From: a virus | Lineage: Duplodnaviria; Heunggongvirae; Uroviricota; Caudoviricetes | Direction: 5' to 3' (one strand) | Virus record (IMG/VR): IMGVR_UViG_3300029878_000286 | Coordinates: 1-8,831 of that record | Length of the DNA: 8,831 nucleotides | Shown: in pieces, positions 442 through 8,831 of the stretch | Layout of the letters: each line of letters begins with the position of its first letter | Position numbering within the stretch: the first letter of the stretch is position 1 | The notes under the pieces: generated by a model | What the model was told of the DNA's origin: nothing | The model's input: the letters and a program-made list of their open reading frames with translations, nothing else | Databases searched by the model: none | Made by a program: the position numbers and the translations under genes

Positions 442-1458
442 TCACACTTCTAGCGTTGCGAGGGGGTTGAATCTCAGAGCCGTCTCAAGATGATCGGGTG
501 CTAAATGGGCATAGCGCATAGTCATTTTTATATCGTGATGTCCGAGGATTTTTTGCAAAGCAAGGATATTTCCACCCGACATCATGAAGTGCGCCGCAAA
601 CGTATGGCGCAGAACGTGTGTCAGTTGACCGCGAGGGAGCACGATAGACGTTTTTTCCATCACGGATAAAAATTGAAAATAGCAGTCTGTAAAGAAATTG
701 AACCCATCAAGCGCCATGATCTCTTCGTAAAGCTCTTTACTGATAGGGATGCTTCTGTTTTTCTTCCCCTTCGTTCTTACAAAGGTAATTCGGTATTTGG
801 TCACTTGCGAGCGGGTAAGATTTATTGCTTCTCGCCAGCGTGCGCCTGTGCTTAGGCATATCTTGACTACCAGTGCCAGAATTGGGTCCTGACGTTTGCA
901 ATCAGCCAGCAGTTCAACAATCTGCTCATGGGTAAGCCATGCCATCTCTTTTTCTGCGATGGTGAATTTTCGCATGTTCTCCAGTGGGTTCGGATACGAC
1001 CATTCGCCCAGGCGGGATAGTTCGCTAAAAACACTACTTAGATAGCTTTGCTCCAGGTTAATGGTGACCGGGCTTGCTCCTTTCTTCCATTTCTCGCTGA
1101 AGTAGATCTCACCTGTCAGGCGTTTATCTCGATAGTGGGCAAACATTTTAGAGGTTAGATCAGTTGCAAGGGGATTGCCCAGAGCGTCAACCATCAACAG
1201 CAGTTTGTCATAGACATGCTGCCCAGCTGTCAGAGATTTACCATGTAGTTTGAACCATAGCTCAATCACGTCTTTCAATGTCCGACGATCCACTGATTCG
1301 CCCAGCCAGGGCTTTGCTTCGGTTTCTTCCATCGTGTGACGCTCAAAAGCCAGAGCTTCGCCTTTGGTGGCGAATTGTTTACGCACACGACGTCCACTAC
1401 GTCCGGCGGGGTAACATTCGCAAAGCCATTTTCCTGTGGTGAGTTTTCGTACTGCCAT
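442..1458 (-). CDS. int: Tyrosine recombinase / phage integrase of the P2-186 family (338 aa)
   Basis: In-frame ATG at 1458-1456 preceded by ggaggg (minus strand); stop TGA at 444-442. The ORF track starts 26 codons upstream at a non-ATG codon. The N-terminus (MAVRKLTTGKW...RKQFATKGEALAFERH) resembles the arm-binding domain of P2/186 Int as I recall it. The C-terminal part carries a tyrosine-recombinase catalytic signature (R...HxLRHT...Y, here ...LTHVLRHTFAAHF...MRYAHL). Confidence 0.9.
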   Translation of the reverse strand: MAVRKLTTGKWLCECYPAGRSGRRVRKQFATKGEALAFERHTMEETEAKPWLGESVDRRTLKDVIELWFKLHGKSLTAGQHVYDKLLLMVDALGNPLATDLTSKMFAHYRDKRLTGEIYFSEKWKKGASPVTINLEQSYLSSVFSELSRLGEWSYPNPLENMRKFTIAEKEMAWLTHEQIVELLADCKRQDPILALVVKICLSTGARWREAINLTRSQVTKYRITFVRTKGKKNRSIPISKELYEEIMALDGFNFFTDCYFQFLSVMEKTSIVLPRGQLTHVLRHTFAAHFMMSGGNILALQKILGHHDIKMTMRYAHLAPDHLETALRFNPLATLEV

Positions 1459-1644
1459 AAAAAATGCCCTCCAGTAGAGAGCATTTTTACTGTATGTATA
1501 ACCAGTGTCAATGTATGAAATCCTGCGACCATACATCTCACTGAAGCCATAATGAAGTTAGCTATTTTTTGCTATGTGAGTATGTGACTTTTGCGGTTAG
1601 CCTGCGGCTCATTGTTATATTAGGCGCAGATATAAAAGCAAAAT

Positions 1645-1836
1645 TTATCGCGAGTTTTTAGTACAGATTTTTTTTGATTTACTAATAGTTCCATCATTGC
1701 AAACGAACTTTCCATCGGAGGTACAGTGAGAGACACCTCCCTTTTTCCCAGAACAAGGATAATTTTTAGCATAGGTAGTTAGTGGGTTTAATAACAAAGA
1801 GCATGATAAAACCACAAAAAATACCTTACCAAGCAT
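1645..1836 (-). CDS. Small secreted cysteine-rich cationic protein (63-aa precursor, predicted Sec signal peptide, about 40-aa mature peptide); candidate moron / lysogenic-conversion gene
   Basis: ATG at 1836-1834 with a strong SD (gggagga) about 5 nt upstream on the minus strand, 15 nt downstream of the cI stop. The N-terminus [23 protein letters not shown] has a positive n-region, a hydrophobic core and a TYA cleavage-type motif. The predicted mature part [40 protein letters not shown] has 4 Cys and 8 Lys. The locus is AT-rich. Confidence 0.6.
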
Positions 1837-1851
1837 AGTTTCCTCCCGGTA

Positions 1852-2421
1852 TTACCTAACGTACTTAATTGTTAAACTTATAATTTTCCCAATTATTTCA
1901 ACATCTTCTATCTTGCACTCGAAGGCTCTGTTTCCACCCTCGACGAAGATTCTTCCACCGGGTAAACGAGTAATGTCACGGATCGTTATTTCGCCATCAA
2001 TACTTATTACCCATTTACCATCACGTATATCATCAAATTCCTTATCACAAATAAATTCAGAATTATTATCTGTGATTACAAAAAGATTCTTGAATGCCGA
2101 CGGTAGAAATTCTCTATCGAAAATATAAAAACCGTCTTCACACAAGGCCCCATCAGATAATACATATTTAGCAACTTCCATAGTATTTGTATTACCTGAA
2201 GTTTGCTTTGAACCATGCCCGGTTGTGAGCCAATTAAGCGAGGTGCCTGTTTCAAGGGCGCACTGGATTACCCATTCTGCTGGGAATGAGTCACGCATGT
2301 AGCGTGTGGCGAGTGTACTTTTAGAGATTCCTAAATGATCGCACAACGCCTGTCGAGTCTTGAATCCATAAGCTTCTACCATGCGCTCTATAGCGCCTCG
2401 TCCGCCTTTCTCCAAATTCAT
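1852..2421 (-). CDS. cI: Phage immunity repressor, 186 CI-like (N-terminal HTH, about 189 aa)
   Basis: The ORF track starts at GTG 2427-2425. The in-frame ATG at 2421-2419 has GGAG 5 nt upstream (minus strand) and is preferred. The length is close to coliphage 186 CI (about 192 aa, from memory). The N-terminal segment ...QALCDHLGISKSTLATRYMR... looks like an HTH. I see no LexA-type GDSM / Ser-Lys autocleavage motif. The gene is divergent from the apl/cII operon and co-directional with int, as in 186. Confidence 0.75.
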   Translation of the reverse strand: MNLEKGGRGAIERMVEAYGFKTRQALCDHLGISKSTLATRYMRDSFPAEWVIQCALETGTSLNWLTTGHGSKQTSGNTNTMEVAKYVLSDGALCEDGFYIFDREFLPSAFKNLFVITDNNSEFICDKEFDDIRDGKWVISIDGEITIRDITRLPGGRIFVEGGNRAFECKIEDVEIIGKIISLTIKYVR

Positions 2422-2445
2422 GGTCACTCCAAGTGAACTTTTATC

Positions 2446-2474
2446 TTGACGATTTCACTGTGCGATCGTATGTT
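2446..2474 (+). promoter_or_regulatory. Candidate rightward lytic promoter (pR-like): -35 TTGACG (2446-2451), 17-bp spacer, -10 TATGTT (2469-2474)
   Basis: Sigma70-like hexamers with canonical spacing, located 70-100 bp upstream of the apl-like start and close to the cI start. This matches the face-to-face pR/pL arrangement known for 186 and P2. GTGAAC / GTTCAC half-sites flank it at 2433-2438, 2453-2457 and 2482-2487. Confidence 0.35.
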
Positions 2475-2546
2475 TATGGTGTTCACAAAATACAAACGAT
2501 CCGTATTCGTCCTGATTAATCATCATTAAACGAGGAATGTTGCATC

Positions 2547-2768
2547 ATGAGACCTAACATTTCAATCACTCTTACCACCCCTCATGTGACTATTGAACGC
2601 TATAGCGAGCTGACAGGGCTATCCATCGATACCATCAATGACATGTTGGCTGATGGACGCCTTATCCGTCACCGTCTGCGCAAAGATAAAAAACGCGAAA
2701 AAGTGATGATCAACATAGCAGCAATGACCGTTGATGCGCTTTCAGAATGCAATCTAAACCTTAATTAG
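2547..2768 (+). CDS. apl: Apl/Cox-like excisionase-transcriptional regulator (73 aa, HTH)
   Basis: ATG at 2547 with gagga about 10 nt upstream; stop TAG at 2766-2768. It is the first gene of the rightward operon, directly opposite cI, which is the position of apl in 186 and cox in P2. The segment [25 protein letters not shown] is HTH-like. The assignment is by position and size. Confidence 0.6.
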
Positions 2769-2800
2769 TTCGATTCTGAAATACATCAGAGGCATTGACC

Positions 2801-3310
2801 ATGTTTGATTACCAAGTTTCCAAACATCCACATTTTGATGAAGCCTGTCGTGCATTCGCATTGCGCCACAACCTGGTGCAACTGGCAGAACGTGCTGGCA
2901 TGAATGTGCAGATTCTGCGGAACAAGTTGAACCCAGCGCAACCTCATTTATTAACCGCACCAGAAATCTGGCTGCTTACCGATCTGACTGAAGATTCAAC
3001 GCTGGTAGATGGTTTTCTGGCTCAGATTCACTGCCTGCCATGCGTACCGATTAATGAGGTGGCAAAAGAGAAACTGCCACATTACGTCATGAGTGCAACC
3101 GCAGAGATCGGGCGTGTTGCTGCAGGTGCGGTATCTGGCGATGTAAAAACCAGTGCAGGTCGTCGTGATGCTATCAGCAGCATTAACTCTGTAACACGAC
3201 TGATGGCGTTGGCTGCTGTTTCATTGCAGGCCCGTTTACAGGCTAACCCTGCGATGGCGAGTGCAGTTGATACCGTGACTGGCCTCGGTGCTTCATTCGG
3301 TTTGCTGTGA
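2801..3310 (+). CDS. cII: CII-like lysogeny-establishment activator (169 aa), 186 CII family
   Basis: In-frame ATG at 2801 (the ORF track starts at TTG 2795) with agagg upstream. The translation [24 protein letters not shown]...[15 protein letters not shown]...[21 protein letters not shown] matches my recollection of coliphage 186 CII almost along its whole length, and the length is the same (169 aa). Confidence 0.8.
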
Positions 3311-3317
3311 GGTGCTT

Positions 3318-3518
3318 ATGCTGACGAAAGAACCATCATTTGCATCGCTGCTGGTAAAGCAAAGCCCGGCGATGCACTACGGTCACGGCTGGATCATGGG
3401 TGAGGATGGAAAACGCTGGCATCCGTGCCGTTCACAAGATGAATTGCTGGCAGAACTATCTACGAAAAAACGGGGGAACAAATGGCTATTGAAGGCGCTG
3501 CGGCGACTGTTCCATTAA
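3318..3518 (+). CDS. fil: Fil-like small early protein (66 aa); 186 Fil is a cell-division inhibitor
   Basis: ATG at 3318 preceded by gaggtg, 7 nt after the cII stop. The ORF track extends upstream to a GTG inside cII. Position after cII and the MLTKEPSFASLLVKQSP...HPCRSQ sequence fit 186 fil as I recall it. Confidence 0.55.
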   Translation: MLTKEPSFASLLVKQSPAMHYGHGWIMGEDGKRWHPCRSQDELLAELSTKKRGNKWLLKALRRLFH

Positions 3519-3823
3519 GACCCGGTGAACGCCTGAATGGACTTAATCATATTGCGGAGTTAAGGGCGAAAGTTTTTGGTTTGAATATTGAGTCAGAGCT
3601 TGAGCGGTTTATTAAAGATATGCGTGATCCACGGGATATCAATAATGAACAAAATAAACGGGCACTGGCTGCCATATTCTTTATGGCAAAAATTCCAGCT
3701 GAACGTCATAGCATCAGCATTAATGAGCTGACCACTGACGAAAAGCGGGAGTTGATTAAAGCAATGAATCATTTTCGTGCAGTGGTGAGCTTATTTCCCA
3801 GACGGCTAACCATGCCGAATTAA
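3482..3823 (+). CDS. Hypothetical phage early protein (113 aa)
   Basis: ATG at 3482 with ggggga 4 nt upstream; stop TAA at 3821-3823. It overlaps the end of the fil-like ORF by 37 nt in another frame and is co-directional within the early operon. No family recognised. Confidence 0.5.
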   Translation: MAIEGAAATVPLRPGERLNGLNHIAELRAKVFGLNIESELERFIKDMRDPRDINNEQNKRALAAIFFMAKIPAERHSISINELTTDEKRELIKAMNHFRAVVSLFPRRLTMPN

Positions 3824-3890
3824 CCAACTAATGAAATTAATGGCGTAAACCCGCCGGGCATCCCTTTATCTAAATTCAGGAGAATTGCTT

Positions 3891-4124
3891 ATGCGTAATA
3901 TTGAAACCCTCACGACCAAAACCGGACCGGATGATGCAGGTCTTAATCTTTTACTGACAGAGGCTCGTCTGGAAGAACGCCGGGCAAGGGCTGAAGCAAT
4001 GGCTGCTCGCCTCGATAGCCTGGCGTGTCATATCACCTCCCGCCAGCTAAACCACGTCGAAGCGGCAGAACTGCTGCGTGTGACTGCTGAAGCAATCCAG
4101 AACGAAGCGCAGGAGATCCACTGA
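3891..4124 (+). CDS. Hypothetical phage early protein (77 aa), predicted helical
   Basis: ATG at 3891 preceded by aggaga (the ORF track starts at TTG 3885). Its stop TGA (4122-4124) overlaps the ATG of the next gene (TGATG), suggesting translational coupling. Confidence 0.55.
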   Translation: MRNIETLTTKTGPDDAGLNLLLTEARLEERRARAEAMAARLDSLACHITSRQLNHVEAAELLRVTAEAIQNEAQEIH

Positions 4125-4351
4125 TGGCTGATGCAATGGATCTCGTACAGCAGCGCGTTGAAGAAGAACGCCAACGCCATATCCGTGCTGCCCGTGCCAA
4201 AACGCCGGGCGTGTCCCGCGTGCTTTGCGTTGAGTGTGAAGCGCCAATTCCGCCAGCACGCCGCCGTGCCATTCCTGGAGTGCAGCTTTGCATTACCTGC
4301 CAGGAAATCGCAGAGCTGAAAGGCAAACATTACAACGGAGGTGCTGTATGA
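4124..4351 (+). CDS. TraR/DksA-family C4 zinc-finger protein (75 aa)
   Basis: ATG at 4124 with aggaga 7 nt upstream. The translation has CxxC-(17)-CxxC (CVEC...CITC), the spacing typical of the DksA/TraR zinc finger. Small TraR-like ORFs occur in the early regions of P2-like and lambdoid phages. Confidence 0.7.
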   Translation: MADAMDLVQQRVEEERQRHIRAARAKTPGVSRVLCVECEAPIPPARRRAIPGVQLCITCQEIAELKGKHYNGGAV

Positions 4352-5220
4352 GCACCATCCTGAAATGGGCGGGTAATAAAACCGCCATTATGTCCGAACT
4401 GAAAAAATACCTTCCTGCTGGCCCGCGACTGGTTGAACCTTTCGCGGGTTCTTGTGCTGTGATGATGGCGACGGATTACCCCAGCTATCTGGTTGCGGAT
4501 ATTAATCCTGATTTAATCAACCTCTATAAAAAGATTGCCGCTGATTGCGAAGCGTTTATATCTCGTGCCAAAGTTTTATTTGAGGAAGCAAACAGTGAGC
4601 TGGCTTATTACAACATAAGACAGGAGTTTAATTACTCAACTGAAATTACTGATTTCATGAAGGCGATATATTTCCTGTATCTCAATCGTCACGGTTACCG
4701 TGGTTTATGTCGCTATAACAAGAGCGGGTATTTCAACATTCCCTACGGTAATTATAAAAATCCGTATTTCCCTGAAAAAGAAATTCGCGCATTTGCAGAG
4801 AAAGCCCAGCGGGCAACGTTTATCTGCGCGAGCTTTGATGAAACGCTGGCGATGCTGCAGGTGGGGGATGTGGTGTATTGCGATCCGCCGTATGACGGTA
4901 CGTTTTCCGGCTACCTGGTGGGTACGGATGAAAACGTGCTGGTACTTAATCGCACTTATGCCAACCGGAGCAACGCCGAACGAGCGGCGAAAATGCAGTG
5001 GGAACGCCTGCAACGCGGCGTTGCGTCATTCTCGCTACAACTGGCAGAAGGGCGGGCAGATCTCTACACGGAAATGCCAGTGAAAGTCAGTGGCTTTAAA
5101 CAGCCGATAGATGATGCGGAATGGACCATTACGACTCTGACGCATACCGTCAGCCCGGATAACGGTTTTACGACCAGTCTGGAGCTTGAAGTGAGGATTG
5201 ATGATTTCGAAATGGAATGA
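4348..5220 (+). pseudogene. Chimeric in-frame ORF (290 aa): N-terminal about 182 aa of a Dam-family N6-adenine DNA methyltransferase fused to the C-terminal about 100 aa of P2-type tail protein D; likely a deletion scar rather than a functional gene
   Basis: ATG at 4348 overlaps the upstream stop (ATGA), with ggagg 6 nt upstream. Residues 1-182 carry Dam-like motifs: ILKWAGNK at the N-terminus, PFAGSCAV (motif I-like) and DPPY at 179-182 (nt 4882-4893). The roughly 95 residues that follow DPPY in Dam enzymes are missing. From about residue 186 (nt about 4903) the sequence ([19 protein letters not shown]...[53 protein letters not shown]...GFTTSLELEVRIDD) matches my recollection of the C-terminus of P2 gpD. 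The next gene is ogr, as it is after D in P2. Confidence 0.65.
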
Positions 5221-5310
5221 TTCTTCGCAATGGAGAACTTTTAAGTTTGCAAAATGGAATAATGCGGTATCATTATTGTGAATTTAGCAAAAATGGGGAG
5301 AACTCGAAAA

Positions 5311-5529
5311 ATGATGATTTGCCCACTGTGTGGAAGTGCCGCCCATACTCGCAGCAGTTTTCAGGTATCTTCATTGACCAAAGAGCGTTACAACCAGTGC
5401 CAGAACATTAACTGCAGCCATACTTTTGTTACCCATGAAACTTTTGTTCGTTCGATTGCAACGCCAAAAGAGTCAAATCCGGTTCAGCCGCATCCAATTA
5501 AATCAGGACAGGTGGCGCTCTCTCTTTGA
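5311..5529 (+). CDS. ogr: Ogr/B-family late-gene transcriptional activator (72 aa, zinc finger)
   Basis: ATG at 5311 with gggaga about 9 nt upstream (the ORF track starts at GTG 5278). The translation MMICPLCGSAAHTRSS...KERYNQCQNINCSHTF...PHP..SGQ has the CxxC-(22)-CxxxxC finger and a KERY.QCQN.NC core as I recall for P2 Ogr; the length is identical (72 aa). It sits after the D fragment as in P2. Confidence 0.85.
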   Translation: MMICPLCGSAAHTRSSFQVSSLTKERYNQCQNINCSHTFVTHETFVRSIATPKESNPVQPHPIKSGQVALSL

Positions 5530-5764: not shown

Positions 5765-7450
5765 TTATCCTAATCCTGGCCATACCATGACGATGATTGT
5801 CCCTGCCAGCGTCAGCAGGACGTTGGCGATTGCGTAGGTGCCCGCATAGCCCAGCGCAGGGATGTTACTGCGAGCTGTATCACTGATGATCTCCATTGCC
5901 GGCGCGCAGGTGCGTGCGCCCATCATTGCGCCGAACAACAGTGCGCGGTTCATTCGCAATACATAAGCACCGAACAAGAAACAGATAACCACGGGCACAA
6001 GACTGACAATTAATCCGGCAATCAACATCTGACCGCCAATCGCGCCCAGGCCGTTATTAATACCGCTACCGGCGCTCAGACCAACGCCTGCCATAAACAC
6101 CATCAAGCCGAACTCTTTCACCATGCTTAATGCACCTTGCGGAATGTAACCGAAGGTCGGGTGGTTAGCACGCATAAAGCCCAGCATAATTCCGGCGAAT
6201 AACAACCCGGCAGCGTTCCCCATGCCGAAACTGAATGTGCTGAACTGGAAGGTGATCATCCCGATCATCAGCCCAATAACAAAGAAGGCGCAAAATGCCA
6301 GCAGGTCAGTGACCTGGCTGTGAATCGAGATAAAGCCGATGCGATCGGCGATGGTTTTTACGCGACGGGCATCACCGCTGACTTGTAAAACGTCACCTTT
6401 GTTAAGCACGACGTTGTCATCTATCGGCATCTCAATCTGGCTACGAATGACGCGGTTAAGGAAGCAACCGTGATCGGTCAACTTCAGTTGTGCGAGACGT
6501 TTACCTACAGCGTTATGGTTTTTAACGACCACTTCTTCAGTGACGATACGCATGTCGAGAAGGTCACGATCGAAAACTTCTTTACCGTTACGGAAGCTGG
6601 GATCGAGTCGGGCATGGGCGTCGGGATAGCCTACCAACGCTATTTCATCGCCCATTTGTAGCACGGCATCACCGTCTGGATTTGCCAGAATCCCGTTACG
6701 TCGAATACGTTCAATGTAGCAGCCGGTTTGTCGATAAATACCCAGTTCACGCAGATTTTTGCCGTCGGTCCAGGCCACCAGCTCCGGGCCGACGCGATAG
6801 GCGCGGATCACCGGTAAATAAACCTTACGGTTGGCATCAGTGTCCAGGCCACGTTCGCGGGCGATTTGCTGGGCGCTGGTCTGTAAGTCCTGATGCTGCA
6901 ATTTCGGCAAGTAACGCGCACCAACAATCAAACTCACCAGACCGATTAAATAGGTTAAGGCATACCCGAGGCTCAGATTATCCAGTGCCAGTGAGAGCTG
7001 CCTGCTTTCCATGCCGGAATGACGCAGTGTATCGCCAGCACCGACCAGAACCGGTGTCGACGTCATAGAGCCTGCTAACATACCGGCCGTCAGGCCAATA
7101 TCCCAGCCAAACAGCTTACCTAACCCTAAGGCGATCACCAGCGCACTGCCAACCATCACCAGTGCTAACATTAGGTAATTTTTCCCATCGCGAAAAAAAA
7201 TGGAAAAAAAGTTCGGTCCGGCTTCAACCCCAACACAGAAAATAAACAGCATAAAGCCAAGATTAAGCGCATCGGTGTTAATGCTGAAATGATGTTGGCC
7301 TAATAACAGCGATACGACTAAAACGCCAATGGAATTACCCAGTTGGATCGAACCAAGTCGTAACTTTCCGAGACATAGCCCAAGCGCGAGGACCACAAAT
7401 AATAACAGAATGTAATTCCCATTTAACAATTCGGCGACGTTTATATTCAC
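5765..7450 (-). CDS. ybjL: Putative transport protein YbjL (561 aa; AAE-family transporter with two TrkA-C-like domains)
   Basis: The translation [33 protein letters not shown]... matches E. coli YbjL as I recall it, with multiple hydrophobic segments and a central soluble region. The start is GTG at 7450-7448. Confidence 0.93.
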
Positions 7451-7719
7451 GGAGGCTAACTTCTTGTTTACTAGTAAGCTGTTGAAAGAAATGGTAATTT
7501 ACGATAATGTTTTTTACCAGAATTCAGGGCGCAGATTCATTCAGCGCACCTAAACGATAGTAAAGTAACAATATATTTTACTAGTGTAATCACATTAGGT
7601 ATCAACGGCTATATGAATTGCGTTGGCCTATATTAGCATGGAATGCGAAGCGGCTTTATCTTACTGAACGCCACACTGGCGAAAAATGTGTTCGATAGAC
7701 GCAGTGTCAGGAGGAACGA

Positions 7720-8097
7720 GTGAAACATAAACAACGTTGGGCGGGGGCAATCTGCTGTTTTGTCCTCTTCATTGTGGTGTGCCTTTTTCTGGCGACGCAC
7801 ATGAAAGGCGCTTTTCGGGCTGCCGGGCATCCTGAAATCGGCTTGCTGTTTTTCATTCTTCCTGGAGCAGTTGCCAGTTTCTTTTCACAGCGTAGAGAAG
7901 TCCTGAAACCTCTGTTTGGCGCAATGCTGGCGGCACCCTGTTCAATGCTTATTATGCGGCTGTTTTTTTCACCGACCCGCTCATTCTGGCAAGAGCTGGC
8001 ATGGTTACTAAGCGCGGTGTTCTGGTGTGCGCTGGGGGCACTGTGTTTCTTATTTATCAGTAGTTTGTTTAAACCACAGCACAGAAAAAATCAGTAA
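7720..8097 (+). CDS. ybjM: Inner-membrane protein YbjM (125 aa)
   Basis: GTG start at 7720 with aggagga 5 nt upstream; stop TAA at 8095-8097. The hydrophobic translation MKHKQRWAGAICCFVLFIVVCLFLATH... matches E. coli YbjM as I recall it. Confidence 0.88.
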   Translation: MKHKQRWAGAICCFVLFIVVCLFLATHMKGAFRAAGHPEIGLLFFILPGAVASFFSQRREVLKPLFGAMLAAPCSMLIMRLFFSPTRSFWQELAWLLSAVFWCALGALCFLFISSLFKPQHRKNQ

Positions 8098-8117
8098 AGC
8101 CCTCAACGTGAGGGCTT
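8097..8117. terminator. Hairpin between convergent ybjM and grxA, possible bidirectional terminator
   Basis: aagccctca / tgagggctt form a 9-bp stem with a 3-nt loop (acg) immediately after the ybjM stop and 10 nt before the grxA stop. The flanking U-runs are weak on both strands. Confidence 0.4.
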
Positions 8118-8126
8118 GTCAGACGA

Positions 8127-8384
8127 TCAGGCGTCCAGATTTTCTTTCACCCATGCAGCAAAATCGGTATAGCCGCCGATATGTTGCTGATCGACAAAAA
8201 TCTGCGGCACGGTTTCTACGGGTTTACCTGCCTTTTGTTGTAGATCTTCTTTAGTGATCCCTTCCGCACGAATATCAACATACTGATACTGAAAATCATC
8301 GCGTTCATTGCTCAATTTCTCAGCCAGATCTTTTGCACGCACACAGTAAGGGCAACCCGGACGACCAAAAATAACGGTTTGCAT
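8127..8384 (-). CDS. grxA: Glutaredoxin 1 (85 aa)
   Basis: ATG at 8384-8382 with gaggag 7 nt upstream on the minus strand (the ORF track starts 5 codons further upstream, inside that SD). The translation MQTVIFGRPGCPYCVRAKDLAEKL... has the CPYC glutaredoxin active site and matches E. coli GrxA. Confidence 0.95.
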   Translation of the reverse strand: MQTVIFGRPGCPYCVRAKDLAEKLSNERDDFQYQYVDIRAEGITKEDLQQKAGKPVETVPQIFVDQQHIGGYTDFAAWVKENLDA

Positions 8385-8543
8385 TATTTCTCTCCTCATA
8401 GATTTATGCCTGTAATGATCACGCTAAAATGTATTCGCTGAAAGTAGGTTTAACCTGTTGCATTAATTGCTAAAAGCTATAACTGTTAAACACAATACAG
8501 TGAAAAGTTTTAGACTGAAGGCTCACTTTGCAGAGGGAAGCGT
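8385..8543. promoter_or_regulatory. Divergent promoter region for grxA (leftward) and ybjC-nfsA (rightward); individual sites not mapped
   Basis: A 159-bp AT-rich intergenic region between divergent start codons. In E. coli grxA belongs to the OxyR regulon and nfsA (co-transcribed with ybjC) to the SoxS/MarA/Rob regulon. I could not place the hexamers or activator boxes confidently by eye. Confidence 0.4.
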
Positions 8544-8831
8544 ATGCGCGCGATCGGTAAATTGCCTAAAGGCGTGTTGATACTGGAATTTATCGGAATG
8601 ATGCTACTGGCGGTGGCGCTGCTGTCGGTAAGCGACTCCCTGTCGCTGCCTGAGCCATTTTCTCGGCCAGAAGTGCAGATTCTGATGATTTTTCTCGGTG
8701 TTTTGCTCATGCTTCCCGCTGCGGTGGTGGTTATTCTTCAGGTGGCAAAACGTCTTGCCCCACAGCTGATGAACCGTCCACCGCAATATTCACGTTCAGA
8801 AAGAGAAAAAGATAATGACGCCAACCATTGA
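8544..8831 (+). CDS. ybjC: Inner-membrane protein YbjC (95 aa)
   Basis: ATG at 8544 with gaggga upstream; stop TGA at 8829-8831. The translation MRAIGKLPKGVLILEFIGMMLLAVALL... matches E. coli YbjC. Its last 17 nt overlap the nfsA start. Confidence 0.9.
   Translation: MRAIGKLPKGVLILEFIGMMLLAVALLSVSDSLSLPEPFSRPEVQILMIFLGVLLMLPAAVVVILQVAKRLAPQLMNRPPQYSRSEREKDNDANH
8815..8831 (+). CDS. nfsA: 5' end (first 5 codons) of oxygen-insensitive NADPH nitroreductase NfsA; truncated by the window edge
   Basis: ATG at 8815 followed by acg cca acc att ga, giving MTPTI(E), the N-terminus of E. coli NfsA as I recall it. It overlaps the ybjC 3' end out of frame, consistent with the ybjC-nfsA operon. Confidence 0.6.

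Follow-up and report, generated by a model that had tools for sequence, protein, structure and literature searches.

What is the short open reading frame (ORF) that lies between the repressor and integrase genes of this 186-like prophage, and what might its product do for the lysogen? In the window, which is the whole 8,831-nucleotide stretch of Caudoviricetes DNA that was analysed (IMG/VR record IMGVR_UViG_3300029878_000286), cI and int are separated by 393 bp, as compared with one boundary base common to both genes in phage 186 and a separation of 69 bp in the P2 record. The first-pass annotation, made by a model from the letters alone, had described a gap of about 390 bp carrying a 63-codon ORF that begins 15 nt beyond the cI stop and is preceded by a gggagga Shine-Dalgarno sequence. 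The locus is arranged exactly so: the cI stop occupies 1852-1854, the ATG of the ORF is at 1836, and the core GGAGG of the Shine-Dalgarno sequence ends 5 nt ahead of that ATG. The ORF, which we refer to as ydcA, is a genuine protein-coding gene, and its coordinates are collected with those of the neighbouring features in Table 1.

Table 1. Features of the ydcA locus, with positions in the window and the basis of each assignment.
Feature	Position	Strand	Basis
tyrosine integrase (int)	442..1458	(-)	Pfam Int_N + Phage_integrase
terminator-like hairpin, core stem 1465-1483	1459..1488	(-)	RNA folding + alignment
promoter-like element TTGACA, 17 nt, AAAAAT	1483..1511	(-)	consensus scan + alignment
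lineage-specific non-coding spacer	1548..1644	(.)	blastn; position of extra cargo gene in relatives
ydcA-family gene, 63 codons + stop	1645..1836	(-)	ORF list; NCBIfam, PHROG and RefSeq names
mature 40-aa YdcA domain, 4 Cys, net charge +7	1648..1767	(-)	motif, pN/pS, AF2 model
signal peptide (predicted Sec/SPase I), codons 1-23	1768..1836	(-)	n-, h- and c-regions, T-Y-A cleavage motif
Shine-Dalgarno GGGAGGA of ydcA	1841..1847	(-)	read from sequence
186-type cI repressor gene	1852..2427	(-)	Pfam Phage_CI_repr + Phage_CI_C; RefSeq start equivalent to 2421

The family of the product had at first gone unrecognised. It belongs to the YdcA family, which is catalogued (Pfam PF27300; NCBIfam NF007462-NF007464; PRK10040; PHROG 6000) but functionally uncharacterised, and RefSeq annotates the gene as 'YdcA family protein' or 'hypothetical protein'. 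The window protein scores 116.1 bits against NCBIfam NF007463, for which the curated cutoff is 93, covers model positions 1-58 of 58, and matches PHROG 6000 at E 4.6e-34. Because PF27300 is newer than the Pfam copy that was scanned, the direct Pfam-A scan of the ORF gave no family match and returned only a sub-threshold similarity to GULLO2-like_3rd (E 0.068), which was rejected as chance. A PF27300 match is on record for P0001, the 97%-identical representative of the cluster that includes the exact window protein, and also for syntenic homologues. Relatives of the ORF fall into 469 clusters at 50% identity, and a search with a 45-column alignment of the domain returned stand-alone short proteins only. 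Many family members are chromosomal and located outside prophages. In E. coli the gene is annotated by RefSeq in 654 of 5,426 complete genomes (about 12%, roughly 1 in 8), including those of BL21(DE3), REL606, ATCC 8739 and HS. One retrieved 36-residue YdcA-type domain sequence is, we presume, that of E. coli K-12 YdcA, which resembles the window protein in having a Sec leader and, after it, a ~35-aa domain that shows the pattern PCSGxKGGxxHC...FVCNDGxxSxSKKxC. E. coli K-12 ydcA is a chromosomal stand-alone gene, whereas the window gene is prophage-borne and linked to cI; the window protein also matches the NF007463 subgroup better than NF007462, and its charge of +7 compares with a family mean of +3.8. 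The idea that the domain resembles DUF3761 and YHYH motifs in a circular-permutation-like manner was dropped as HMM support was absent. Most other literature under the name 'ydcA' concerns unrelated same-named genes in Bacillus, F-type plasmids and a gonococcal island.

A Sec-type signal peptide and a positively charged mature part of 40 aa with four Cys had been proposed for the product, and this prediction is borne out by residue-level features. In the leader, Lys4 is followed by a hydrophobic core spanning residues 5-16 (Kyte-Doolittle >2); a Pro occupies -6, and T-Y-A fills positions -3 to -1. Ala at -1 is conserved in at least 90% of the family and the remainder of the leader varies freely; K or R is found near the N-terminus in 251 of the 271 members checked, and a lipobox-like motif in only 7 of them. 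A lipoprotein reading of the product was rejected because Cys12 is not conserved, being missing in close homologues from a related locus (L012) and from Haemophilus phage HP2. A lipoprotein-type exclusion factor resembling Cor, Llp or TraT was likewise rejected, as V-L-S-C at residues 9-12 misfits [LVI][ASTVI][GAS]C. The mature part contains eight Lys, one Arg, two Asp and no Glu, giving a pI of 9.6 and a net charge that rises to +8 if His is counted. The family alignments show no variation, or almost none, in the motif PCSGxKGGxxxC...FxCxDGxxSxSKxxC, and the window protein, with its signal peptide and four-Cys motif, carries every invariant column of three such alignments. The AF2 model of the mature core is a beta-hairpin with a pLDDT of ~87-92. 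From these features, together with established Sec/Dsb biology, we infer that the 23-residue leader would direct Sec export, that signal peptidase I would cut after T-Y-A, and that the 40-residue basic product, beginning at K24, would fold in the periplasm into a small domain with a beta-hairpin, stabilised by two disulfides. Its predicted mass is ~4,261 Da, which is 4,265 Da less 4 H for the disulfides.

The mature sequence is nearly identical in Escherichia, Haemophilus, Moraxella and Herbaspirillum. Its pN is 0.03-0.07 where pS is 0.74-0.90 (synonymous sites are saturated), and between relatives pN reaches 0.4-0.5 in the leader and 0.19-0.26 in the adjoining cI, values that indicate extreme purifying selection on the mature peptide. 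From Escherichia to Haemophilus the mature peptide is more tightly conserved than the repressor beside it, implying an important, chemically invariant target.

As had been claimed, the gene is located in the lysogenic operon directly after cI, and because the gap is just 15 nt there is no intervening terminator. The lysogenic (pL-type) transcript that makes CI would thus be expected to make the YdcA peptide as well, and we infer co-expression of the two genes from this arrangement. In comparison with a related locus (L008), cI and ydcA form one contiguous DNA block of 70% identity (window 2500-1653), and int forms a separate block that is 91% identical. The int gene with ~89 nt upstream is 91-96% identical to prophages carrying different cargo, suggesting that it is a separate recombining module; the alignments likewise indicate that ydcA is inherited as a single module with cI in 186-like prophages. 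The region had been regarded as an AT-rich insert. Its AT-richness was confirmed (GC 0.369 for 1459-1851 and 0.349 for the ydcA ORF, versus 0.462 for the whole window), but its independence was not: cI is AT-rich too (0.406), and ydcA appears to be part of the cI immunity module because the two genes share one homology block. The first-pass annotation had proposed looking for homologues between repressor and int genes elsewhere, and such recurrence is seen in other P2/186/HP-like prophages. The arrangement cI-ydcA-(cargo)-int is found again in prophages of Escherichia, Klebsiella and Hafnia, and HP2 also has the cI-ydcA order, with ydcA as an unannotated ORF whose start overlaps the cI stop; the HP2 gene after ydcA specifies a protein in which a signal peptide is combined with an OB-fold 'tRNA_anti-like' domain. 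Siphophages of Moraxella and Acinetobacter have the homologue among their tail genes, outside any lysogeny operon. The prophage within the window is reduced to ~5 kb, yet ydcA is intact; the BL21 prophage is degraded.

The non-coding stretch between ydcA and int had been presumed to hold a terminator and an int promoter, and a conserved terminator-like hairpin and a promoter-like element were both found there. A minus-strand terminator scan returned nothing after ydcA, and the hairpin emerged only by folding and alignment. RNA folding of 1440-1660 gave z = -4.06. Six int modules preserve the stem, which in L008 shows a compensatory replacement of C-G by U-A, and the hairpin exists in two versions that differ in loop length. 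The U6 run ends at the int AUG, and the 3' arm includes the int Shine-Dalgarno sequence (GGAGGG). The promoter-like element fits 10 of 12 consensus positions in a region where the total number of such sites equals chance expectation; TTGAC and ACAGT are invariant among relatives that are otherwise 66-91% identical. The spacer between this element and ydcA had no blastn match in any related locus retrieved, and the unmatched stretch extends to ~1652, within the 3' end of ydcA. At the position of the spacer, relatives carry either the gene of a KAP NTPase (PDC-S20) or one that encodes 347 aa.

The other proteins in which the domain occurs bear on what it might bind. A YdcA domain sits N-terminally on three unrelated secreted nuclease folds (SNase, Endonuclease_NS and PLDc_2), in rare metagenomic proteins with 1-3 members each, and occurs as tandem repeats in other proteins. 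The C-terminal extension of longer family members matches PBCV_basic_adap (PF08789) in 2 of 58 cases (best E 1e-4); the Pfam scan gave no PF08789 match for the window protein, and a literature search for 'PBCV-specific basic adaptor' found no paper. One YdcA subfamily is encoded inside a type VI secretion system (T6SS) cluster, and one family member is fused to a VasL segment. A search of the PDB with the family profile gave a weak match (E 0.0018) to Dis2 (7muc_AN), and hhalign of YdcA against Dis2 gave E 2e-5. Foldseek against solved structures also placed Dis2 first (probability 0.85, TM 0.64, E 0.19), with the next hit at a probability of at most 0.11; against the BFVD viral structures it found nothing above a probability of 0.21. 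In addition, a Dis2-like protein carries PF27300. [quoted passage not shown] Both proteins have a signal peptide followed at once by C-x-x-K-x-G-G-[IV]-x-x-C ... V-C-N-[ND]-G-x-x-S, and both are disulfide-rich, the window protein by prediction. The YdcA domain would form both lobes of Dis2, which has five disulfides, sits under the outer membrane and is a stoichiometric component of its secretion apparatus; the window protein is single-lobed, with four Cys. By these comparisons Dis2 is the sole YdcA-domain relative with a solved structure, and the similarity is weak. The nuclease fusions, the occurrence in a T6SS cluster and the weak similarity to Dis2 are new observations on the YdcA domain, and from its domain architectures it would seem to be a periplasmic binding or adaptor module.

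Which ligand such a module would engage in the lysogen is where the possible explanations part. We tentatively propose, as a possibility rather than a probability, that the YdcA peptide binds a polyanionic ligand in the periplasm and hinders the entry of foreign DNA. The free domain would bind a conserved polyanion, for which the DNA phosphate backbone is the simplest candidate, through its invariant Gly-rich G-x-K-G-G loop and its S-x-S-K motif. Such binding would impede incoming foreign DNA, for instance that of superinfecting phages, and this exclusion at the envelope would complement CI immunity; superinfection exclusion, which the first-pass annotation had already suggested, is our best guess at a function for YdcA. 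A binding module of this kind is suggested by the nuclease fusions, the PBCV_basic_adap-like C-terminal module, the basic charge of the family (mean +3.8) and the OB-fold neighbour in HP2. The defence genes found between cI and int in relatives, together with the precedents of Glo and HxsA that are described below, also count in favour of exclusion. Against the proposal, the nuclease fusions fit an anchoring domain equally well, the solved relative Dis2 binds lipoproteins and not DNA, many members are chromosomal, and the siphophage homologues lie among tail genes. Tailed phages, moreover, may eject their DNA without exposing it to the periplasm. Among the defence families of PADLOC-DB v2, YdcA matches none at E up to 1e-3.

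It is conceivable, although we lean against it, that the gene is instead a lysogenic-conversion factor for envelope fitness, its product aiding the host envelope or acid/organic-acid tolerance with no anti-DNA role. The chromosomal ydcA of E. coli K-12/W has been linked to tolerance of acid and of 3-hydroxypropionate (3-HP): regulation by YdcI at acid pH is reported for this paralogue, and E. coli W becomes sensitive to 3-HP once it is deleted (PMC7642389). The family, moreover, is widespread beyond prophages, and the gene is intact in the reduced window prophage and the degraded one of BL21. The 3-HP paper is the only one that our literature search returned on YdcA function, however; it offers no mechanistic explanation for the phenotype and itself calls the function unknown (PMC7642389), and envelope fitness would account neither for the nuclease fusions nor for the close association with cI, at a site that in other cases is taken up by defence genes. 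The contacts that Dis2 makes with lipoproteins in the T4SS cap (PMC8486379, PMC12716638) point to another reading, in which the domain binds proteins, namely outer-membrane lipoproteins, peptidoglycan-associated proteins or trans-envelope machines; a free prophage copy would then mask or perturb a structure of this kind, such as a phage receptor complex, a secretin, a T4SS or a T6SS, and the nuclease fusions would use the domain as an anchor. The subfamily in the T6SS cluster and the VasL-fused member fit such docking, as does the name 'conjugal transfer protein' borne by some UniRef entries for the window protein. We nevertheless consider it distinctly unlikely: the similarity to Dis2 is weak, T4SS and T6SS genes are absent from the window, and the mature sequence is near-identical across hosts whose envelope proteins differ, which favours a chemically invariant ligand.

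The remaining explanations concern the nature of the ORF and its peptide. The first-pass annotation had also raised a bacteriocin-like, signalling or protease-inhibitor peptide, and a secreted antimicrobial would be of the same kind; a small, cationic, cysteine-rich product that is predicted to be exported invites such ideas. They have become very improbable, as no immunity, maturation or dedicated export genes adjoin the gene in any context examined, the leader is of an ordinary Sec type, no inhibitor or bacteriocin family was matched in Pfam, NCBIfam or the PDB, and the domain is reused in tandem repeats and as the N-terminal module of large secreted enzymes. A chance ORF or a decayed remnant without function, as might be suspected of a short, AT-rich ORF in a prophage remnant, is scarcely credible. 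It is refuted by the curated family cutoff that the protein passes, by the 469 clusters of relatives and by the coding signature of a mature part in which purifying selection is strong while synonymous sites are saturated, and synteny is conserved from Escherichia to Haemophilus.

Should the YdcA peptide indeed keep DNA out, it would rank with the smallest known exclusion factors encoded by a single gene, and the classic 186/P2 immunity region would gain a layer at the envelope. A broader version of the proposal, which we regard as unlikely, holds that the YdcA domain is an unrecognised, disulfide-stabilised periplasmic mini-domain of ~35 residues that binds phosphate or DNA and acts as a single-gene barrier to phage ejection, transformation or conjugation. 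If true, ~12% of E. coli genomes, BL21 and REL606 included, would have a second, envelope-level arm of prophage immunity, and the domain would target secreted nucleases to their substrate and would explain Dis2, a 'Legionella-specific' T4SS component. Even if it does not block DNA entry, YdcA is still a tractable 4-kDa domain, and its ligand would annotate hundreds of protein clusters. In the literature searchable here, the cI-linked prophage gene, the N-terminal modules of secreted nucleases and Dis2, an orphan component of the T4SS, had not previously been connected.

Among known systems, the proposed barrier to incoming DNA most invites comparison with exclusion and defence at the envelope and in the cI-int interval. 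Glo of the Vibrio cholerae phage K139, which is also P2-related, is likewise made from the lysogenic transcript, by a gene located between cI and int; Glo has a signal peptide and acts in the periplasm, as YdcA is predicted to. Glo has 137 aa, its gene comes after orf2 and immediately ahead of int, whereas ydcA is the next gene after cI, and an exclusion phenotype is on record for Glo only. Homology of the two was rejected (hhalign probability 0.2%; tblastn of YdcA gave no Vibrio phage match), so that YdcA would be analogous to K139 Glo, not homologous. A further likeness, in function only since the sequences are unrelated, is to HxsA of the HXS anti-phage system; HxsA is periplasmic and has been proposed to halt incoming DNA by an electrostatic interaction with it (PMC13128918). 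HxsA needs rSAM maturation and has a peptidoglycan-binding domain, whereas YdcA, as far as its sequence indicates, is a single unmodified product. Finally, the cI-int interval has been described as a defence hotspot in P2-related prophages (PMC9122126), and PD-Lambda-1 or PDC-S20 occupies the same slot in relatives of the window prophage. Such cargo (PD-Lambda-1, the KAP NTPase PDC-S20) consists of large cytoplasmic enzymes that are freely swapped, whereas ydcA stays with cI and co-diverges with it.

The small open reading frame (ORF) lies on the minus strand directly behind a 186-type repressor gene: the cI stop codon (1852-1854) is followed by 15 nt that include GGGAGGA (1841-1847) and then by the ydcA ATG at 1836, with the integrase gene int further downstream and divergently transcribed cox/apl-like and cII genes beyond cI. 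The cI-int distance is 393 bp, compared with 69 bp in a P2 record and a shared boundary base in phage 186, and the GC content of the ORF is 0.349 versus 0.462 for the window. In the leader of the encoded peptide, Lys4 precedes a hydrophobic core (residues 5-16), and Pro and T-Y-A occupy positions -6 and -3 to -1, respectively; the mature part consists of 40 amino acids with four Cys, eight Lys, one Arg, two Asp, and no Glu (pI 9.6). These observations confirmed the first-pass annotation in its description of the ORF, its position, leader, Cys content and charge, and of the widened cI-int gap. The leader features and the behavior of the family predict a signal peptide, and by established Sec, LepB, and DsbA biology the product would be exported by Sec, cut after A23, and oxidized to two disulfides. 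Since family members do not conserve the leader residue Cys12 and just 7 of 271 family leaders have a lipobox-like motif, a lipoprotein was rejected and the product is predicted to be a soluble periplasmic protein.

Features of the window and of related loci fetched for comparison
Locus	Feature	Position	Strand	Remarks
Window	ydcA-family ORF	1645..1836	minus	63 codons
Window	cI, 186-type	1852..2427		upstream of ydcA; Pfam Phage_CI_repr, Phage_CI_C
Window	tyrosine integrase int	442..1458		downstream of ydcA; Pfam Int_N, Phage_integrase
Window	hairpin and promoter-like element (putative insulator)	1459-1515	minus	
Window	slot sequence without match	1548-1652		~105 nt
Window	AT-rich ORF	1-333	minus	110 codons, GC 0.36; between int and host gene rcdA, att side of int
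Window	Dam-type methyltransferase ORF	4288-5220	plus	fused in frame to C-terminal ~70 residues of tail protein gpD
Window	host genes	5765-8831		Asp-Al_Ex/TrkA_C transporter, YbjM, DUF1418
L003 (phage vB_EcoM-813R9)	slot cargo, PD-Lambda-1	1291-2967		annotated 'chromosome segregation ATPase'
L008 (relative aligned to window cI-ydcA)	slot cargo	4198-5529		
L002	slot cargo	1851-2900		
L012	slot cargo	4247-5290		
L005 (Moraxella phage Mcat13)	YdcA homologue	3438-3617		just upstream of long tail gene, annotated 'tail protein'
L006 (Acinetobacter phage Ab11510-phi)	YdcA homologue, unannotated	about 3501-3599		just upstream of long tail gene, annotated 'hypothetical protein'
L018 (Psychrobacter plasmid pA40P1)	cargo operon	2399-4091		5.4-kb plasmid
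L019 (Citrobacter plasmid NZ_CP053574.1)	YdcA-related protein	4926-5327		133 aa

The ORF is a real gene with a secure family assignment. The window protein scored 116.1 bits against a cutoff of 93 with NCBIfam NF007463 (PRK10040.1-2), matched PHROG 6000 (E 4.6e-34), and belongs to a 90% cluster of 355 member sequences whose representative has a precomputed PF27300 match (named 'YdcA'). Of 5,426 complete E. coli genomes, 654 carry the gene, among them those of BL21(DE3), REL606, ATCC 8739, and HS, and RefSeq labels it 'hypothetical protein' or 'YdcA family protein'; with gene and family already in databases, the feature is not in itself new. When 1.84 billion representatives were searched with a profile, 469 clusters of relatives were obtained at E up to 1e-3. 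In the family alignments, the leader is variable and ends in a nearly invariant Ala, and the mature motif PCSGxKGGxxHC...FVCNDGxxSxSKKxC is nearly invariant, with all four Cys retained. Nei-Gojobori counts for the window gene against syntenic homologues gave pN of 0.03-0.07 and pS of 0.74-0.90 (saturated) for the mature part, pN of 0.4-0.5 for the leader, and pN of 0.19-0.26 for the adjacent cI; against Haemophilus phage HP2, the mature part had a pN of 0.22 and cI one of 0.47. With its lower pN, the mature peptide is therefore under strong constraint, exceeding that on the repressor.

The search for homologues between repressor and int in other prophages, suggested by the first-pass annotation, was positive in Escherichia, Klebsiella, Hafnia, and Haemophilus. 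Diverged homologues (62-70% overall identity) are located directly 3' of cI in 186-like prophages, and are followed by a KAP NTPase and int in Escherichia and Klebsiella and by a 347-aa gene without assigned function and int in Hafnia. Haemophilus phages HP2 and S2 contain an unannotated 60-codon homologue, its ATG overlapping the cI stop, and then orf1 and int. By blastn, a single continuous block of ~70% identity spans cI and ydcA (window 2500-1653); int with ~89 nt upstream makes up another block, 91-96% identical, that is common to prophages with other cargo. ydcA is therefore part of the immunity module, co-inherited with cI and placed for translation from its transcript, and the freely exchanged slot is the ydcA-int interval. 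This slot (in relatives that lack ydcA, the entire cI-int gap) is occupied by PD-Lambda-1 in phage vB_EcoM-813R9, and in relatives also by the KAP NTPase (PADLOC candidate PDC-S20) or by genes without assigned function. In the window, the slot is empty save for a short segment that matched none of the fetched loci by blastn. Two kinds of ~350-aa cargo protein without family match occur in the slot and may be uncharacterized defense genes. Defense hotspots have been described in the cI-int interval of P2-related Vibrio phages (PMC9122126) and, as minor ones, in the int-primase and int-att intervals of P2-like prophages (PMC13586616). The AT-rich ORF on the att side of int, annotated as hypothetical protein WP_000974872.1, matched nothing in Pfam, NCBIfam, or PADLOC, and PHROG only weakly. 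The prophage in the window is a remnant of only about 5 kb; other strains, S10 and BL21 among them, have longer versions that include replication genes and a retron.

The spacer before int had been guessed to hold a terminator and an int promoter, which its fold and conservation support. The minus-strand fold of 1440-1660 (z = -4.06) has a hairpin of 12-13 bp, AAAAAUGCUCUC-UACUG-GAGGGCAUUUUUU, which runs up to the int AUG and whose 3' arm includes the int Shine-Dalgarno sequence. When six int modules with flanks 66-96% identical were aligned, the GC-rich stem, a U5-6 run (U6 in the window), and the start codon were kept in 6/6; the stem occurs in two versions, with a two-sided (compensatory) change from C-G to U-A in L008. 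Just upstream of the hairpin, TTGAC...ACAGT.AAA.T is almost invariant and fits a promoter with a 17-nt spacing, TTGAC(A/C)-17-(A/T)(A/T)AAAT, whose -10 element overlaps the hairpin 5' arm. As the total of promoter-like sites in a scan of the region equaled chance expectation, support for this promoter comes from its conservation and not from the scan. Hairpin and promoter together look like a terminator/promoter insulator between cargo slot and int: read-through lysogenic transcripts would end at the hairpin, or the int ribosome-binding site would be sequestered, and transcripts from the int-proximal promoter would begin within the hairpin and so avoid it.

In most relatives the domain stands alone, in proteins of 55-75 aa; among the longer ones, it is duplicated or triplicated in tandem in proteins P0079-P0083. 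In rare metagenomic proteins it also comes right behind the leader at the N-terminus of nucleases with three unrelated folds: SNase (P0119), Endonuclease_NS (P0181, P0185, and the fragment P0208), and PLDc_2 (P0206). A PBCV_basic_adap-like C-terminal module is present in 2/58 members, a VasL segment is fused to the domain in P0107, and the related Citrobacter plasmid protein is encoded inside a T6SS cluster, adjoining a GIY-YIG nuclease. The domain is mostly basic: its net charge averages +3.8 (range -1 to +9; +7 in the window copy). Further plasmid homologues are found in Acinetobacter, Psychrobacter, and Rhizobium; pA40P1 is a minimal Rep/Mob plasmid whose single cargo operon encodes a 150-aa lipoprotein, the 57-aa YdcA homologue, and a protein of 319 aa without family match. 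In Moraxella and Acinetobacter siphophages the homologue is encoded amid tail genes, in Mcat13 and Ab11510-phi among late/tail genes and beside small genes of the moron type (bPH plus SHOCT, DUF4236). The gene that follows ydcA in HP2 specifies a protein with a signal peptide and a 'tRNA_anti-like' domain, a class of OB fold.

AlphaFold2 predicted a core of a short helix or turn and a beta-hairpin, with pLDDT of about 85-92 (full-length) and 87-88 (mature-only) for the central residues. The best match of the domain profile among all PDB sequences was 7MUC chain AN (E 0.0018), which is Dis2 (Lpg0823) of the Legionella Dot/Icm T4SS outer-membrane cap, through the segment CCSKMGGINYC..SAGRLVCNNGFYST; a second partial repeat matches too. 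The same chain ranked first when the mature model was compared with 350,542 PDB chains by Foldseek (probability 0.85, TM 0.64, 38% identity), and no other chain in that set exceeded a probability of 0.11. hhalign against a Dis2-like protein, itself with a PF27300 match, gave a probability of 76% (E 2e-5; related proteins P0329 and P0330). Each single statistic is modest, and together they suggest that the widespread YdcA family includes Dis2 as a divergent member with two lobes. Dis2 has been described as without structural neighbors and as Legionella-specific; it is dispensable, consists of two similar lobes pinned by five disulfides near the outer membrane, and contacts DotK, DotC, and DotD (PMC12716638).

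In outline the locus is ordinary, with a predicted periplasmic protein encoded by a prophage in its lysogenic operon. The literature that could be searched yielded no account of the cI-ydcA module, of the architectures with nucleases or T6SS, or of the relationship with Dis2. Conservation of the peptide is unusually high, it lends itself very well to experiments, and its ligand would provide an annotation for a large orphan family. Because the domain is basic, is fused to three nuclease folds, and retains an invariant Gly-rich K-G-G and S-x-S-K, we propose that the free domain may bind a conserved polyanion in the periplasm, for which the DNA backbone is the simplest candidate, and that this binding would impede the entry of foreign DNA. 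The defense nature of the slot also argues for such exclusion, which we hold only tentatively. Against it, YdcA had no PADLOC match, and many copies lie outside prophages, including the ydcA of K-12/W with its acid/3-HP phenotype; a role in envelope fitness seems somewhat unlikely. Also against exclusion, Dis2 binds lipoproteins and not DNA; we consider it rather improbable that YdcA serves as an adaptor of an envelope machine or of the outer membrane. The rest of the probability falls to something not yet considered.

Two known systems offer precedents for exclusion in the periplasm. Glo of Vibrio phage K139 is periplasmic, is encoded between cI and int, and is involved in phage exclusion; it is not homologous to YdcA, however, which counts against the proposal. 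In the anti-phage system HXS, incoming DNA is proposed to be arrested electrostatically in the periplasm (PMC13128918).
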